Below are positions 29,571 through 35,310 of a DNA stretch of 64,000 nucleotides, one piece after another. Source of the stretch: Candidatus Limnocylindria bacterium. Lineage in GTDB: Bacteria; Chloroflexota; Limnocylindria; P2-11E. The stretch spans positions 26,563 to 90,562 of the forward strand of contig JBBQVQ010000003.1 in NCBI GenBank assembly GCA_038211425.1, in the 5' to 3' direction. Position 1 is the first letter of the stretch; every line of letters begins with the position of its first letter. Below the pieces are notes generated by a model, which was given only the letters and a program-made list of their open reading frames with translations, ran no database searches and was not told the DNA's origin. Both the position numbers and the translations under genes were made by a program.

Positions 29571-30059
29571 CTAGTCGGCGGGTCCGCCCAGCCGTTCCAC
29601 CTGTTCGGCGATCTCGGTCTCGTCCGGGACCTCCCGCAGCTGATGCACGTCGATGTAGCGGCAGACGCCCTCGGCGTCGACGACGATGATCGCGCGCTCC
29701 GGACGTCCGATGTCCCCGTTGAAGACGCCATAGGACCTCGTCACGTCGCCGTGCGGCCAGAAGTCGGAGCAGAGCGGGTATTTCAAGCCGCCGAGCTGGT
29801 CGGCCCAGGCCTTCAGGGCGTAGACGGTGTCGCACGAGATGCCCACGACCTGGGCGGTGCCGCCGACAAAGCGCTCTTGCAGCGCATTCAGGGCCGGCGC
29901 CTCGCTACTTCAGGTCCCCGTGAAGGCGAACGAGAAGAACGCGATGACGACGCGCTTGCCACGGTGCTCCGACAGCCTGAAGTGGGCACCATCGTGGCTC
30001 CGCAACGCGAAATCCGGCGCGGTGTCGCCGACGCGGAGCGTCTCGGTCTCCGTCGCCAC
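29571..30059 (-). CDS. peroxiredoxin (Bcp/PrxQ-like AhpC-TSA family) with in-frame TGA at the peroxidatic-Cys position - candidate selenoprotein
   Basis: Track ORFs 29910..30107 (...LRVGDTAPDFALRSHDGAHFRLSEHRGKRVVIAFFSFAFTGT) and 29571..29846 are in the same frame, separated only by TGA at 29910-29912. The read-through is ...FAFTGT-U-SSEAP..., aligning with the FTxVC(T/P)TE motif. Start is uncertain (GTG at ~30059 or 30107). Confidence 0.7.
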
Positions 30060-30101
30060 CTTGCTGCGGCCTTTGCGGGGCACACGCGTACGATAGCCGC
30101 G

Positions 30102-30314
30102 ATGCACACTGAAGCCCGCGATCGGCGGATGGACGCGGATCGCCGCGACTTCCTCGCCTATCGCACGCGTTGTCCGTTCTCAGGCGATGCCATCGGGCCG
30201 CGCTTCGTGACCCGGGAGCATGCGGGCGTCCCTCCCGACCCGGCCTATGCGGCGAGCGTCCGTTGTCCGGGCTGCAAGCAGGAGTTCGAGGTGATCTTCA
30301 CCGGAGGCAGCTGA
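30102..30314 (+). CDS. hypothetical small CxxC...CxxC protein
   Basis: ATG-initiated tail of track ORF 29643..30314 (RCPFSGD...RCPGCKQEFEVIF). Overlaps the peroxiredoxin 5' end on the other strand, so it is uncertain. Confidence 0.3.
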   Translation: MHTEARDRRMDADRRDFLAYRTRCPFSGDAIGPRFVTREHAGVPPDPAYAASVRCPGCKQEFEVIFTGGS

Positions 30315-30467: not shown

Positions 30468-32219
30468 TCACGGCACGACGGTAATGGGAACGTATACGCC
30501 CTGGTCGTCCATCCACACGAGTCCGTCGATCACCGGCCGCAGCGGGAGAACATAGACCCCAGGGGTCAACGGGGCGCGGACCTGGAAGAGGAAGGTGCCG
30601 ACGCCGCCTGGTGCGACGTCCGGCTCGACCTGCATGGCGACCCGGTCCCCCGACGGCCATGCCACCGCGAAGGACGCGAACGTCCGGTCGTCGCGCGCGA
30701 CGGCCAGGTTCGCCTGCTGCCCGACGGTTCCCCGCACCCAGTGCTGGGATCCGGCGTTGGCGAACGCGATGGCGATCTGCGCGCTGACCGTGCCGGCGCG
30801 CAGCGTGGGCCATGGCGACTGCGAGAGCCAACGGCTGTGGTATCCCGTGTCCGAAAACACGTCGATGAAGACACCCTGGTCCTCGAGCCAGGTCACGCCG
30901 TCGATCACTCCCCGGAGAGGTAGCCGATAGACCCCGTACGGGGCCGGCGCGCGTACGCTGAAGGTGAACGTGGCGAGACCACCGGGCGCGACCGTCGCTT
31001 CCGCCGTCGTGGCGACGCGGCTCGGCGCCAGCCACCCGACGTTCATGCCGAGATCGCTGTAGGTCGAGACGTCGCCGATGAAACCCAGGTTCGCCTGCTG
31101 ACCAAGCACGCCCCTCTGCCACGATGCCGTGCCCGTATTCCGCAAGCGCACGGTCACGCTGCCCGTGGCACCCGGCTGGAGCACCGGGTACGCGGTCTGA
31201 TCGACGAAGGCCGAGTGGAACGTGGCAGCGCTCGCCCGTGCCGGTGCGGGCGGCGGCGCTTGCGCCGCGGCGGTGCCCGCGGTCGTGAAGTCCCACTCGT
31301 TCGTGACGTACTGGCCGGCGACGGTGATGTCGAAGCGCACGTGATAGGCGGTGCCGGCTGAAAGCGGGCGCTGGGGGACGATGGCCTGGTAGTCGCTCTC
31401 GAACAGCTGCGGCGCGTACCAGATGGGCAGGCGCACGCCGCCGGGCGCGATGATCTCGGCCGCCCGCATGACGACGTTCACGCCGCCGGAGTACACGACC
31501 ATGATCGGATAGCCGACCGGCCCCACCGTGCCGGCGGGGAGTGGGCTCGGCGACTCGCCTCCCGCCCACGAGGGCGGGATGTCCCCCTGCCCGGCCGCCG
31601 GCGACCGGACGTACGGGGTGGGGCGAACGCTGAAGTCGTACACGAGGTCACCGACGGTGGTCGCGCGCCCGTTCAGGTCCGAGTGGCCCCAGCCGGCAAG
31701 CACCGCGCTCGGATGCATGAGCCCGAGTCGGTGGTACGGCATATCCCACAGCTGGGCGACCGACCCGACCGCGCTACTTCCACCGCTCGCGACCTCGCTC
31801 ACGAACGTCCTGCTGAGGCCGGCGGCGGCGACGCGATCGCGCGGCGTGATACCCGTGAACCCTGGCTGGCCCGCCGTTTCGTAATGCCCGCCGGCGGCGT
31901 TCAGCGACGAGTAATCCGCGTGGTGCTGGGCCGCGGACACCACGCGGGCGTCCGCGGGGATCGTCGGGGCGCCGATGGCCGCGCGCCGCTGGTTCTGCGC
32001 GAGGAGCATGTCGTTCGGCGCCACCGTGCCGGCCGCGGCGGTCAGGCCGAACGGAAGGAGGAGGGCAACGGACAGCGAGACGCTCGACAGGATCGGCGCG
32101 GCCGCAATGGGTCTTTGGCGCAACACGGGTCGCAAGGTGAACGGGCTGGTGCCCACACGCGTTACTCGGGACCGCGCGTTCCGGTCGAGCGCCGCCCGCC
32201 CGCGGCGCCTGACCGTCAC
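30468..32219 (-). CDS. secreted protein with N-terminal signal peptide and two C-terminal ~110-aa internal repeats (Ig/NBR1-like)
   Basis: 583-aa track ORF. The signal peptide is probably MLRQRPIAAAPILSSVSLSVALLLPFGLTAAAG if a GTG near 32130 is the start. Internal repeats: ASWQRGVLGQQANLGF...GVYRLPLRGVIDGVTWLEDQGVF and QHWVRGTVGQQANLAV...GVYVLPLRPVIDGLVWMDDQGVY. An N-terminal CAP/SCP-like assignment is only tentative. Confidence 0.65.
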   Translation of the reverse strand: MTVRRRGRAALDRNARSRVTRVGTSPFTLRPVLRQRPIAAAPILSSVSLSVALLLPFGLTAAAGTVAPNDMLLAQNQRRAAIGAPTIPADARVVSAAQHHADYSSLNAAGGHYETAGQPGFTGITPRDRVAAAGLSRTFVSEVASGGSSAVGSVAQLWDMPYHRLGLMHPSAVLAGWGHSDLNGRATTVGDLVYDFSVRPTPYVRSPAAGQGDIPPSWAGGESPSPLPAGTVGPVGYPIMVVYSGGVNVVMRAAEIIAPGGVRLPIWYAPQLFESDYQAIVPQRPLSAGTAYHVRFDITVAGQYVTNEWDFTTAGTAAAQAPPPAPARASAATFHSAFVDQTAYPVLQPGATGSVTVRLRNTGTASWQRGVLGQQANLGFIGDVSTYSDLGMNVGWLAPSRVATTAEATVAPGGLATFTFSVRAPAPYGVYRLPLRGVIDGVTWLEDQGVFIDVFSDTGYHSRWLSQSPWPTLRAGTVSAQIAIAFANAGSQHWVRGTVGQQANLAVARDDRTFASFAVAWPSGDRVAMQVEPDVAPGGVGTFLFQVRAPLTPGVYVLPLRPVIDGLVWMDDQGVYVPITVVP

Positions 32220-32229
32220 GAATCGAAGG

Positions 32230-32295
32230 CTACTTCTTCTTCTTCGTGCTCTTCTTCGCGGTGGTCTTCTTGGCGGCCTTCTTCTTTGCCGGCAT
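32230..32295 (-). CDS. 21-aa lysine-rich small ORF (MPAKKKAAKKTTAKKSTKKKK)
   Basis: ATG preceded by AAAGGAGGUGA at ideal spacing. Stop TAG lies 10 nt upstream of the first possible start of the secreted-protein gene. Sits between the HTH gene and the secreted protein on the same strand. Confidence 0.5.
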   Translation of the reverse strand: MPAKKKAAKKTTAKKSTKKKK

Positions 32296-32332
32296 CTACC
32301 TCACCTCCTTTCCCCAGGGGTGGCCCGGCGCG

Positions 32333-32569
32333 TCAGAACAGGCGCTTCTGCCTTCCGGACGGGCGTCCGGAATGGCTGGAGCGGCCGAGCCACTCCTCGA
32401 ATTCGCGCCTGGGGATGCGCCAGACCCGACCGACCCGCACCGCGGGGATCCGCGTGGGGTCCGCGTCGTCCATCGCGCCGAGGCGGCGCAAGATGGTCGT
32501 GGGATGGACGCGCAGGCGTTTTGCGACCTCGTCGGTCGTGAGGTACTCATCGTCAGCGCGATCGGCCAC
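32333..32569 (-). CDS. excisionase-family (HTH_17 / BldC-like) small DNA-binding protein
   Basis: GTG ~32569 with an AGGAG Shine-Dalgarno site. 78 aa with an HTH (YLTTDEVAKRLRVHPTTILRRL) and a C-terminal wing (VRVGRVWRIPRREFEEWL). Confidence 0.7.
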   Translation of the reverse strand: MADRADDEYLTTDEVAKRLRVHPTTILRRLGAMDDADPTRIPAVRVGRVWRIPRREFEEWLGRSSHSGRPSGRQKRLF

Positions 32570-32873
32570 TGCAGCTCCTGCGTAGGATGCTTCTCCGCGC
32601 TTCACCTGCTTGATGCCACTTTAACTGCATGCCTTGTCCTGTCAAGGATGCTACCGCCGGCAATGCGACACGGGCGGAGCGGCAGGAGCGCCGGAAGGGC
32701 GAGTCGAACGGCGGCATCGCGCCGTGCGGCCGGATCGGAAGCCGTCGCGATGGGCATCGGTCGGATGACGAGGCGAGACCCGCGGGCCATCCCGCCAAGC
32801 GGCGGACCCCGCATCGGGTCCTGGCCCACGACGGGTCGTCCGGTCCGGCACCCGGCGGGCGTCTTGATTGCTG

Positions 32874-32948
32874 TCGGGGTGGACGGATTCGAACCGTCGA
32901 CTTCGACGCCCCCAGCGTCGCGGTCTAACCAAGCTGACCTACACCCCG
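32874..32948 (-). tRNA. tRNA-Pro (anticodon GGG)
   Basis: 75-nt cloverleaf on the minus strand: acceptor CGGGGTG/CACCCCG, D arm GGTC/GACC, anticodon stem CGACG/CGTCG, loop CTGGGGG, T arm GACGG-TTCGAAT-CCGTC, discriminator A. Confidence 0.9.
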
Positions 32949-32995
32949 AGTCGCGCTCCCCCGAGTCTATCGGCGTGCCGACCGGGTCCCCCGCG

Positions 32996-33226
32996 TCAGC
33001 GATCGGCCGTGTCCGCGGCCGGCATAAGGCCGAGGAAGTCGCGCGTGAAGGCGTATAGCTTCTCGCGGTCGTCCTTCTGCACGGGCCGTAGCCCGTAGTG
33101 GTTGATGACGCGGATCTGCGCCTGCAGCCACTCTTTCCAGCATTCCGCGCAGACGCGGCCCTCGATCTCCGCGCCGAGGGGATCCGGCAAGCCCACGCGG
33201 CCCGCGCCCTCCCGGGTCAGATTGCA
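32996..33226 (-). CDS. YggX-like Fe(2+)-trafficking / oxidative-damage protection protein
   Basis: The C-terminal ~77 aa of track ORF 32996..33403 (TCSRCNLTREGAGRVGLPDPLGAEIEGRVCAECWKEWLQAQIRVINHYGL...YAFTRDFLGL) match the YggX pattern. GTG start preceded by GAGGGAG. Confidence 0.65.
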   Translation of the reverse strand, partial: CNLTREGAGRVGLPDPLGAEIEGRVCAECWKEWLQAQIRVINHYGLRPVQKDDREKLYAFTRDFLGLMPAADTADR

Positions 33227-33270
33227 GCGACTGCACGTCACCTCCCTCACGCGCTCATGGTATCGCCGGG

Positions 33271-33672
33271 TCAGCGCACGCGGCCGATCCGCGCGACCGG
33301 GGCGTATCGGAATGCCACGCGAGCGACCACCCTCGTCGCCGGTAGGGGGCCGAACGTCCGGCTGTCGGTGCTCAGCGTGAGGTTGTCGCCTGCGACCTCG
33401 CACGTCCCGTCCGGCCGCACCGCAGTCGCTCGCTTCACGAGTAGCCGGCGCGCGTCGCGAGGGTCCCGCACCACGACGAGATCACCGACGCGAAGCCGCC
33501 GGGGCGGCGGCAGGGCGATGAGCCAGTCGCCCTCGCGCAACGTCGGCTCCATGCTGCGTCCGGTGACCGCGACGCGAGTGATCAGCCGCGAGGGCTCGGC
33601 CCGAAGCGGCCTCCCCTTCCGGATAGCACGCCATCGGCCGTAAGCGAGGCGCGCGGCGCGAGCGGGATTCAA
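33271..33672 (-). CDS. sodX: S26-family signal-peptidase-like NiSOD maturation protease
   Basis: Ser protease motif (GRSMEPTL) and a C-terminal motif (GDNLTLSTDSRTFGP). Immediately downstream of sodN. Confidence 0.75.
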   Translation of the reverse strand: MNPARAARLAYGRWRAIRKGRPLRAEPSRLITRVAVTGRSMEPTLREGDWLIALPPPRRLRVGDLVVVRDPRDARRLLVKRATAVRPDGTCEVAGDNLTLSTDSRTFGPLPATRVVARVAFRYAPVARIGRVR

Positions 33673-33760
33673 GGGCCGCGAGGGCTCAGGCCGAAATGGC
33701 GTCCCGTTCCGGACGCCGCCGCGACCGACACGCGCAGCGCGAGTGGAGCCTGATCGGCTA

Positions 33761-34201
33761 CTAGGCCGCCTTCTTCGTCGCCCAGAAGATGTCGCTGATC
33801 TCTTTCACGGCGGCCTGGAGGTCGGCTGCGGCCTGCGCGTCCACGCTCTGCTTGTTCTTGGAGCAGAGCTTCGCCGCCTTCCAGAACGTCTCGTGAAGCT
33901 TGGGGAACTTCTCGAGGTGCTCGGGCTTGAAGTAGTCGGTCCAGAGGATGAGGAGCTCGCGCTTGCAGATCTGCGCGTGTTCCTCCTTGACGGCCACGGA
34001 ACGCACCAGGTTGTTGCGATGGGTCAGCTCATCCGGACCATGCTGTGCGGCGCCGGTGGCGGCAGCCTCGATCTTCTCGACCATCTTGGCGACGGTGTCC
34101 GAGGCGACCTTCGCGGCGGTCGGGTCGTAGATGCCGCATGGAATGTCGCAGTGCGCGTGGACGATGACACGTGGAGCGAGCAGCGAACGAATGGAGAACA
34201 T
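33761..34201 (-). CDS. sodN: nickel-containing superoxide dismutase precursor
   Basis: Internal ATG ~34201. Propeptide MFSIRSLLAPRVIVHA, then the Ni-hook HCDIPCGIYDP. Confidence 0.85.
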   Translation of the reverse strand: MFSIRSLLAPRVIVHAHCDIPCGIYDPTAAKVASDTVAKMVEKIEAAATGAAQHGPDELTHRNNLVRSVAVKEEHAQICKRELLILWTDYFKPEHLEKFPKLHETFWKAAKLCSKNKQSVDAQAAADLQAAVKEISDIFWATKKAA

Positions 34202-34244
34202 ACATCCCCTCCAGCGGAGTCGATTCGGTCGGGCGTCTCCGATA

Positions 34245-35310
34245 CTACGGCGGCGAGACCTGCCGCGCCGCGGCACCGATGACCAGGCGCGACACCTCCG
34301 CGAGGGGACCGGAGATCTCGTCGCCGCGCTCGCGGTCCATGAGCTCCCGCATGGCGTCTCGGACCGGCTTTCCCTCGAAGAGCACGGCATACGTCTGCTC
34401 CGCGATGGGCATCTCGACGCCCCGGTGGCGCGACGCAGCGCGGACGGCGGCGGTCGTGCCGATCCCTTCGGCGACCTGCCCGCCGAGATGGGCGCGGATG
34501 TCGGAGAGCGGCAGGCCCTTCGCCAGGAGCTCTCCCAGCGTGCGGTTGCGCGAATGCGCGCTCGTGCATGTCGCGACGAGGTCGCCGATCCCGGCGAGGC
34601 CCGCGGCGGTCAGGGGACTGGCCCCCTCCGCGAAAGCGAACCGGGCGATCTCGGCGAGACCGCGCGTCACGAACCCGGCCTTGGCGTTGTCGCCATAGCC
34701 CATGCCGTCGATGGCGCCGGCGCCGACCGCGACGATGTTCTTGAGCGCCCCGCATATCTCGACGCCGACGACGTCGGCGTTCGTGTACGCCCGGAACATC
34801 GGCGTACTCACGACCGCCTGGAACCGCCGCGCCGTGCCCGGATCGGCCGACGCGACCACCGTGGGCGCGGGGAGGCCGGTCGCGATCTCGCGGCTGATGT
34901 TCGGCCCCGAGAGGACGGCGATGCGATCGCGGTTCATCACCTCCGACCAGAGCCCGCTCATGCGGCGACCGTCCTCGGTGAGGCCCTTCGTCGCCGAACA
35001 AAGGTGGTGGTCCGGTCTGAGGAGCGGCGCGATCAGATCGCGAAGCTCGCGCACGCCAGCGCTCGGAACGGCGATCACCAGGTCGTCGGGGATCAGGGCG
35101 CGCTCGATGTCGCTCGTGACCTCGACGCCCTCCGGGAGGCGCACGCCCGGCAGATAGCGCACGTTCTCCCGCCGAGACGCGACCTCGCCGGCCCGCGCGG
35201 CATCGCGCATCCAGAGGACCACGCGCCGGCCGCCGTCCCGCGCCATGATCGTCGCCAGCGTCGTGCCCCACGCGCCGCCCTGGAGGACGGCAACGTCGGG
35301 CGCCCTCACG
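34245..35310 (-). CDS. gpsA: NAD(P)H-dependent glycerol-3-phosphate dehydrogenase
   Basis: GTG ~35310 overlaps the plsY stop. Signatures GGAWGTTLA and a C-terminal NAD_Gly3P_dh domain. The first 200 aa of the track ORF are a shadow. Confidence 0.85.

Follow-up and report, generated by a model that had tools for sequence, protein, structure and literature searches.

Can a short run of lysine codons in a GC-rich bacterial genome be a gene, and what would its product do? This question is raised by a small open reading frame (sORF) in a 64,000-nucleotide stretch of DNA from a Candidatus Limnocylindria bacterium (Chloroflexota; contig JBBQVQ010000003.1, positions 26,563 to 90,562, of assembly GCA_038211425.1), hereafter called the window. 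The sORF lies on the minus strand at 32295..32230, with its ATG at 32295..32293 and its TAG at 32232..32230, and encodes the 21-residue peptide MPAKKKAAKKTTAKKSTKKKK (codons ATG CCG GCA AAG AAG AAG GCC GCC AAG AAG ACC ACC GCG AAG AAG AGC ACG AAG AAG AAG AAG TAG). The window has a GC content of 70.4%, and five neighbouring genes have a lysine to arginine ratio of 16:147. In all six frames of the 64 kb, the sORF is the sole place with at least five lysines per ten residues, and it is far from a chance feature. The minus-strand letters directly before the ATG are GGGGAAAGGAGGTGAGGTAG. The Shine-Dalgarno (SD) site, AAAGGAGGTGA (32301..32311, minus strand), is spaced 5 nt from the ATG, and its core GGAGGTGA occupies 32308..32301. 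The original prediction, made from the letters of the window, had the peptide, the coordinates and the SD core right. Comparison with related loci establishes that the sORF is real, that its peptide is under selection, that it can be separated from both neighbouring genes, and that a GC-rich hairpin 3' of it is constrained as well.

The gene directly upstream encodes a small DNA-binding protein with a helix-turn-helix domain of the HTH_17 family. We scanned species-representative genomes with an alignment of this HTH protein and obtained 59 Limnocylindria-type loci and four Desulfobacterales loci. The sequence continues past the HTH stop codon in 56 of the Limnocylindria-type loci, which together with the window form a readable set of 57; three further loci end at contig edges, and one of these still shows the first 17 codons of the sORF. 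We found the sORF in 57 of the 57 readable loci and in 27 further metagenome loci. The common layout in the 57 loci is an SD approximately 25-40 nt after the HTH stop, a gap of 5-8 nt, an ATG (GTG once), the codons CCN GCN AAG AAG AAG, and a stop. The SD reads GGAGGTGA or GGGAGGTGA in all 57, with a spacing of 5-8 nt. Among the loci, 32 different peptides are encoded, between 12 and 22 residues long. In codons 2 and 3, the first two positions are nearly invariant and the wobble positions vary (G28/C20/A9 in codon 2 and A19/G25/C10/T3 in codon 3), and the length differs between loci by whole codons only, every insertion or deletion being in frame. Conservation of the reading frame in relatives had been proposed at the outset as the test of a coding function, and this synonymous third-position variation and the in-frame length changes bear the coding function out. 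In its general form, the proposal of a very basic small protein also holds, since frame, SD, start and stop are kept in every relative. Two of the contigs are labelled as Candidatus Saccharimonadales (L010) and Solirubrobacteraceae (L024). Both carry a typical Limnocylindria module of HTH gene, sORF and hairpin, and they were probably mis-binned into those metagenome-assembled genomes.

The composition of the peptides is narrow. Lysine makes up 57% of the residues, alanine 23%, proline 5%, threonine, serine and glycine together 9%, and arginine 0.2%; lysine is encoded by AAG 574 times and by AAA four times. A, P, T, S and G fill the approximately 420 non-lysine positions, joined by a small number of H, two R and a single M inside the peptide. 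The residues D, E, L, I, F, W, Y, C, N and Q are absent throughout, and V is found only as the start codon. In high-GC genomes, proteins use leucine, valine, arginine, aspartate and glutamate more than most other residues. A change from AAG to AGG, which replaces lysine with arginine, is one GC-increasing transition, yet arginine accounts for only two of approximately 580 basic positions. The absence of the commonest residues and the avoidance of arginine, which is a single GC-increasing change away, show that the composition is actively maintained at the level of the peptide and not merely at that of the lysine codons. Selection thus acts on the composition of the peptide, and it is close to certain, to judge from these alignments, that the sORF is a real gene. 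Ten variants of at least 20 residues were looked up among 15 billion predicted proteins and none was present (0/10), indicating that annotation pipelines have never called this gene.

The second constrained element is a hairpin that lies 15-23 nt past the sORF stop in every locus. We call it hairpin 2, to distinguish it from a tentative hairpin 1 described below. In the window it occupies 32182..32215 (minus strand), with an apical stem-loop GCGCCGC-GGGCGG-GCGGCGC at 32208..32189 and a lower stem CGGTC/GACCG. There is one copy in the 64-kb window and one in each related locus, always 3' of the sORF, and a reading of hairpin 2 as a repeat of the repetitive extragenic palindromic type was rejected on this ground. 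The 7 bp of the apical stem are paired in 100% of the loci. Compensatory double changes are seen in the top of the hairpin, as GCGCGGC/GCCGCGC in four sequences and GCGCCGT/ACGGCGC in one. The lower stem varies by clade and stays complementary (GCGATG/CATCGC, GTGGA/TCCAC, CGGC/GCCG); only the apical 8 bp could be scored reliably, because the sizes of the internal loops depend on the clade and a fixed geometry undercounts the pairing of the lower stem. In the module-wide alignment, the 20-nt top surpasses even the first two codon positions of the HTH gene in conservation, and it is kept, including its 6-nt loop GGGCGG, across lineages that share just 56-63% identity in the flanking secreted protein. 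Such constancy is more than an ordinary terminator would require. No U-tract follows hairpin 2, a terminator scan gave no call on the minus strand, and an Rfam scan of 31000..34000 at E<=1 matched only the tRNA and neither the hairpin nor the leader.

We investigated the genetic contexts in which the sORF and hairpin 2 occur. In the window they are followed by a gene for a secreted protein, and this gene lies 3' of the sORF in approximately 43 of the 57 genome loci, as judged by gene clustering. It is absent from 12 of the 57, where the sORF and hairpin 2 are nonetheless kept. The next gene in these 12 loci is convergent; it encodes a protein of approximately 65 residues with two cysteine pairs (...CPFDGT...VRCP...ELFEVVFR*) and ends 40-60 nt past the sORF stop. 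As the 12 loci encode 11 different peptides, the sORF has been kept under selection without a co-directional gene downstream. A third context came from metagenomes. A scan with the exact 20-mer of hairpin 2 returned 80 loci, of which 27 have an sORF just upstream and 53 are unrelated high-GC sequence, and the 20-mer was therefore discarded as a diagnostic marker. The HTH gene is present in 11 of the 27 loci, whereas the other 16 (group B) lack it; tblastn found no HTH gene in the contig in any of the 16. The group B peptides are MPKKKKAAKKKH and similar, with 12-13 residues. The gene order in group B is tRNA-Pro(GGG), a uracil-DNA-glycosylase-like gene (a label based on sequence motifs judged by eye), promoter, a 5' untranslated region (5'UTR) of approximately 75 nt, SD, sORF, stem-loops, a conserved leader of approximately 150 nt, the secreted protein and the convergent cysteine-pair gene. 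The promoter, CTTGACA-N17-GACAAT, stands directly before the sORF and is invariant in 16 of 16 loci. It is of the same type as the promoter found elsewhere before the HTH gene, TTGACA-N17-A(C/G)AAT(G). The group B secreted protein is 56-57% identical to that of the window, as compared with 57-63% in the HTH-containing lineages, indicating that group B falls inside the same radiation. These three contexts (HTH gene and secreted-protein gene; HTH gene without a co-directional gene, 12 loci; no HTH gene, 16 loci) define SD, sORF and hairpin 2 as the invariant unit. This unit is separable from the HTH gene, the secreted-protein gene and the tRNA. Thus, the sORF is neither simply a leader of the secreted-protein gene nor an obligate partner of the HTH gene.

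What, then, would the product do? The reading we favour, tentatively and with somewhat less than even confidence, is that of a free polycation that resembles the lysine/alanine tails (histone H1-like or PAKKA) carried in high-GC bacteria by DNA- and RNA-binding proteins and that binds nucleic acid in trans. A sigma-70-type promoter would drive transcription of the unit, which follows the HTH_17 gene (the case in the window) or is transcribed alone, as an RNA of approximately 170 nt. Translation would start from the strong SD, and the GC-rich hairpin 2 would close the transcript, most likely forming or protecting its 3' end. Removal of the methionine would leave a peptide of 11-21 residues, nearly all lysine and alanine with some proline, threonine, serine and glycine, and without residues able to fold or to insert into a membrane. 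Such a peptide would be diffusible and would bind nucleic acid electrostatically. The nucleoid is our first choice of target, where the peptide might aid the Xis/BldC-like HTH protein when the two are co-expressed, and ribosomal RNA (rRNA) is the second. We favour this polycation for three reasons, namely the selection on a peptide composition that excludes arginine and fold-forming residues, the free length, and the autonomy of the unit. A link with DNA can be counted as well. The sORF is mostly the second cistron after an HTH_17 protein (with non-significant fold matches to Xis, BldC and RacA), and, in Desulfobacterales, relatives of the HTH protein bear a fused lysine/arginine tail, with an HU/IHF gene downstream.

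Several points weigh against the free polycation. Translation in the cell and binding, like the identity of the target and the role of the hairpin, are things that we infer from sequence comparison. We know of no documented role for a free peptide of this kind in bacteria, the known tiny basic proteins being ribosomal. The HTH link is dispensable in group B, which weakens a DNA-specific version. The co-directional gene that follows in 43 of the 57 genome loci and in 16 of 16 group B loci makes an effect in cis possible. Finally, the extreme conservation of hairpin 2, loop included, is unexplained by a simple trans-acting peptide and hints at a function at the RNA level. No peptide-centred model explains this conservation, and it is the chief unexplained observation. 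There is also a more specific proposal, which we regard as doubtful. In it the sORF would encode a free housekeeping polylysine of 11-21 residues, a 'mini-protamine' or detached H1 tail, hairpin 2 would serve the gene as its RNA site for control or recognition, and arginine would be strictly avoided because charge interactions have to be weak and dynamic, or open to modification.

Alternatively, the product might be a very small ribosomal protein held in a defined rRNA pocket, in the manner of bS22/eL41, bL37 and bTHX. In Limnocylindria it might correspond to bS22, and hairpin 2 could be an rRNA mimic serving as a site of autogenous control. We consider this unlikely, in spite of precedent: to our knowledge, essentially all conserved, non-hydrophobic and very basic bacterial proteins of less than 40 residues are ribosomal. 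The strong SD, the invariant promoter of group B and the apparent single copy per locus would also suit a housekeeping product. Ribosomal proteins of this size do escape annotation, as the annotation of Borrelia had overlooked bS22 and bL38, and further examples are predicted (PMC10618245). The bS22 of Mycobacterium smegmatis is encoded by MSMEG_0945, and the protein is said to be strongly conserved throughout Actinobacteria; the M. tuberculosis tag is printed there as 'Rv0550B' (bioRxiv 10.1101/2023.03.31.535098). We confirmed the M. smegmatis sequence against PDB entries. A homologue search with a doubled bS22 query gave matches that look actinobacterial among the best 120 listed, and all of the named ones are. 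The M. tuberculosis tag should presumably read Rv0500B.

The gene order offers a parallel. At two actinobacterial loci, in Micromonospora and Rhodococcus (L064, L065), the bS22 gene (PF08213) lies directly 3' of an HTH_17 gene of 75-78 codons, the order in Rhodococcus being proC-like reductase, HTH_17, bS22 and epimerase. The linked HTH proteins, which we take to be counterparts of Rv0500A, are 33-36% identical to the HTH protein of the window over the domain. Such an identity is ordinary between any two HTH_17 proteins and would be insufficient for orthology of the loci, and the sORF is in any case separable from its HTH gene. The sequence comparisons do not connect the two peptides. The sORF peptide had no Pfam or NCBIfam match at E<=1, PF08213 included, and no PDB sequence match with a single-peptide profile. 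A hidden Markov model (HMM) built from 121 actinobacterial bS22 sequences did not match any of the sORF peptides at E<=10 with filters off, nor did this HMM match any six-frame ORF in the window and the 59 loci (approximately 0.5 Mb, not genome-wide), and hhalign gave a probability of 0.1% for the pair. The original prediction had named bS22 and bL37 as possible relatives; membership of these families finds no backing in these searches, and the bS22 gene order is the one point in its favour. The arginine and hydrophobic anchors are also missing, although rRNA binders of high-GC genomes are arginine-rich, and the length ranges from 12 to 22 residues within a single class, whereas bS22 is described as strongly conserved in Actinobacteria.

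A second alternative, likewise unlikely in our judgement, is that the sORF acts in cis as a translated sensor. Its 7-13 AAG codons, in a genome with very little lysine, would report the supply of lysyl-tRNA or the translation status, and the position of the ribosome would set the stem-loops and thereby termination, the stability of the 3' end or read-through into the secreted-protein gene. The arrangement of promoter, short 5'UTR, sORF, stem-loops, leader of approximately 75-150 nt and gene is attenuator-like in the 43 genome loci and 16 group B loci with a co-directional gene. Amino-acid-rich attenuator sORFs are well known from the his and trp leaders and the cysteine-rich sORFs of mycobacteria. 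In some lineages, moreover, the spacer past the stop pairs and covaries with the lysine codons. This is hairpin 1, tentatively placed in the window at 32217..32248 (minus strand) on the basis of the minimum-free-energy fold, in which CACGAAG, in the 3' portion of the sORF, is base-paired to CTTCGATTCGTG in the pyrimidine-rich spacer and the stop codon lies in the loop. Covarying examples are AAGAAGGGC/GCCCTTCTT in L003 and CAAGTCGAA/TTCGACTTG in L045, and the pairing is also convincing in L038. Hairpin 1 is attractive in single folds but fails as a general feature, as it outperforms shuffled spacers (with 5% or fewer of them equally stable) in just nine of 54 loci and is absent from the largest clade. 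For hairpin 2, the folds contain no segment complementary to its 5' arm that could act as an antiterminator, and it lacks a U-tract. A codon sensor would not need the non-lysine residues to be restricted to small neutral ones, and the downstream protein, with CAP and Ig-like domains, has no lysine-related function. The sORF and hairpin are, in addition, kept under selection in the 12 loci where the next gene is convergent. The proposal of a lysine stalling leader for the secreted-protein gene finds no support as the main function.

It is also conceivable, and in our view very unlikely, that the locus is mainly an RNA element, with the hairpin and its purine- and pyrimidine-rich flanks serving as a small RNA or a protein-binding 3' structure and the ORF being secondary, as in dual-function small RNAs. 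The top of hairpin 2, as the most conserved sequence of the locus with compensatory changes, fits this idea, as does the group B transcript of approximately 170 nt, whose conserved 5'UTR is able to pair with the SD. In the group B loci (L071-L144, over a region reaching from about 230 nt before the hairpin to 170 nt past it), this 5'UTR contains CGCUUCCUUUC, complementary to the SD GGGAGGAGGUG. The predicted fold of that transcript, which would sequester the SD, is no more stable than those of shuffles (z = -0.26), and we dropped it. Rfam provides no match for an RNA element. The SD, ATG, frame and stop are as universal as the hairpin, and the substitutions are coding-like. The remaining alternative, a functionless chance ORF in an AAG-rich spacer, has a probability close to nil: AAG repeats leave every one of the three frames open, so that an open frame says little by itself, but the idea is refuted by 57 genome and 27 metagenome loci, which preserve the SD, the start, the stop, the frame and the composition, and the sORF is the only lysine-rich stretch in the window.

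We investigated the HTH gene, the first cistron in this lineage. It occupies 32333..32566 (minus strand) and had been described in the original prediction as an excisionase-family gene, which agrees with its scores of 44.5 bits for PF12728 (cut-off 27) and 44.1 bits for TIGR01764 (cut-off 28.8). A conserved AGGAG SD in the alignment of relatives suggests that its start is best placed at GTG 32566, for a protein of 77 residues. The protein scores 14.1 bits against the BldC model NF033787, whose cut-off is 77, and thus lies outside the BldC subfamily. We found 179 close relatives at 72-90% identity, and the named ones are Chloroflexota of the class Candidatus Limnocylindria. The C-terminus GRQ(R/K)RLF is near-invariant, and there is an acidic insertion of six residues, DDADPT. 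Of 120 homologues, 119 have (R/K)RLF as their last residues and the remaining one carries an unrelated extension; none is fused to the sORF peptide. An AlphaFold 2 model has a pLDDT of 70.6, and its best Foldseek matches, to the DNA-architectural proteins Pukovnik Xis, BldC, RdfS and RacA, are not significant (E 0.6-0.9). A PDB profile search with the HTH protein gave weak, non-significant matches only. The idea that the gene is the excisionase of an integrated element was rejected, as no integrase occurs among the inspected neighbouring gene clusters and the gene is found in 59 related genomes.

A promoter-like sequence, TTGACA-16-TAAAGT, precedes the unit of HTH gene and sORF at 32618..32645 (minus strand). 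It matches the consensus at 10 of 12 positions, with 0 such matches expected in shuffles, and both the -35 and the -10 elements are conserved in relatives. Between promoter and SD, the HTH 5'UTR (approximately 32570..32617, minus strand, and homologues) contains the nearly invariant CGCAGGTGA and several GCAG repeats, and this region is possibly an autoregulatory operator. The nearest relatives of the HTH protein outside Limnocylindria are those of the four Desulfobacterales loci (L060-L063), with 38-42% identity and a lysine/arginine tail fused at the end (...SKSVPKRRKK). In L060-L062, a gene of the HU/IHF family with a strong SD follows directly. The tail is longer and lysine-rich in L063, which has no HU gene within 600 nt.

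On the other side of the unit, the secreted protein (30468..32156, minus strand) has a CAP domain (29.2 bits) and NBR1-like Ig repeats, the latter (N_BRCA1_IG, 23.1 bits) scoring under the cut-off of 28. The protein of the relatives starts at its signal peptide, approximately 75-150 nt past hairpin 2, and the start in the window is accordingly likely to be 32156, 32135 or 32126. It had been proposed that the sORF stop lies 10 nt before the first possible start of this gene. The count is mechanically right for GTG 32219; such a start is not credible, however, as it lies inside the stem-loops and away from the signal peptide at which the relatives start. Conserved blocks lie between hairpin 2 and the secreted-protein gene (window approximately 32126..32181, minus strand; L006, L008 and L013), namely GTAAC-N6-GATAAC in group A and CCGTTACAAAG...CTGTTACCGCGCTGACATAACGGCGCG in group B. 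These blocks may be a promoter, an operator or a structured leader of that gene. Beyond the secreted-protein gene, a convergent gene on the plus strand (30130..30314, ending at 30314) encodes the small protein with two cysteine pairs (...CPFSG...VRCPGCKQEFEVIF), which has approximately 61-70 residues; its sole family match is a weak one to an MJ0042-type zinc finger. The tRNA-Pro(GGG) (32873..32948) is a conserved neighbour on the same strand as the HTH gene in the window. The linkage of the sORF with HTH gene and tRNA, as first described, is thus present here, but it is looser in relatives, since 16 loci lack the HTH gene, and the distance between tRNA and HTH gene is mostly 0.7-2.7 kb, with the two on opposite strands.

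Other neighbours have features of their own. A peroxiredoxin gene of the AhpC/TSA type (29571..30107, minus strand) has an in-frame TGA (29912..29910) at the position of the peroxidatic cysteine (...FAFTGT-TGA-SSEAPAL...). The TGA also occurs in 37 related loci, where a cysteine codon is never found in its place. The peroxiredoxin is probably a selenocysteine enzyme that ORF callers split in two. At 33761..34390 and 33271..33672 (both minus strand), sequence motifs judged by eye point to a nickel superoxide dismutase (HCDIPCGIYDP motif) and an adjacent signal-peptidase-like maturation protease. Further neighbours are GpsA, PlsY, Der and a YggX-like Fe(2+)-trafficking protein, the last of which Pfam confirmed. 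All of these are ordinary housekeeping genes and give no hint of the function of the sORF.

If it is made, the sORF peptide would be among the shortest conserved bacterial gene products, and a natural test of what bare polylysine does in a cell, be it nucleoid compaction, RNA chaperoning, ribosome binding or charge buffering. Were the mini-protamine idea true, no smaller conserved gene product that binds nucleic acid would be known in bacteria. A literature search found no report linking Limnocylindria to such a peptide. The case also exposes a blind spot of annotation pipelines, for which a gene present in every readable locus examined from a class has not existed. The parallel with the actinobacterial HTH_17-bS22 order raises the question of whether different Terrabacteria fill the bS22 locus, or the ribosomal pocket, with unrelated polycationic peptides. 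Hairpin 2 is a second and independent puzzle, a 20-nt RNA or DNA element that has been kept while the flanking proteins diverged.

The locus can be compared with several known systems. The HTH protein shares its HTH_17 domain and size with the small MerR-like winged-helix proteins of the BldC/Xis/RacA type and with Rv0500A, a DNA-binding repressor (PMC6375644), and differs from BldC-type proteins by the DDADPT insertion, the invariant C-terminal GRQRRLF and the sub-cut-off BldC score. The attenuator leaders hisL, trpL and thrL and the cysteine-rich sORFs of mycobacteria resemble the sORF in having one dominant codon, stem-loops and a mostly co-directional gene. Unlike them, the sORF unit has no terminator/antiterminator switch and no U-tract, the gene after it is unrelated to lysine and missing in 12 loci, and its composition is constrained beyond lysine. 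Like bS22 (PF08213/COX24_C, with its relatives mS38 and eL41), the sORF product is tiny, very basic and missed or mis-called by pipelines, and a small HTH_17 gene precedes the tiny polybasic ORF in both cases, an order kept in the window and 56 genomes and lost in the 16 group B loci. However, bS22 is a highly conserved protein of approximately 33 residues with both arginine and lysine and with hydrophobic residues, as against a variable peptide of 12-22 residues with 0.2% arginine, and the gap between HTH gene and next ORF is approximately 200 nt for actinobacterial bS22 and approximately 40-50 nt for the sORF. The very small basic ribosomal proteins bL37 (24 residues), eL41 (25) and bTHX (26) are of a similar size class and charge; by composition, on which alone they were compared with the sORF, they differ in containing arginine, and their length is fixed.

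The closest resemblance is to the H1-like or PAKKA tails of mycobacterial HupB/Hlp, Ku and HBHA, Pseudomonas AlgP and Chlamydia Hc2. Their make-up of lysine, alanine and proline, with threonine, serine and glycine, is near-identical to that of the sORF peptides, which have no acidic or hydrophobic residues, and both lack arginine, vary in repeat number and occur in high-GC genomes that otherwise avoid lysine. Tails of this kind have been described as DNA-binding modules, for Ku of M. smegmatis in particular (PMC3553676). They are segments of 30 to more than 100 residues fused to a folded domain, whereas the sORF is a stand-alone ORF of 12-22 residues in all loci, with its own SD, stop and hairpin and, in group B, its own promoter.

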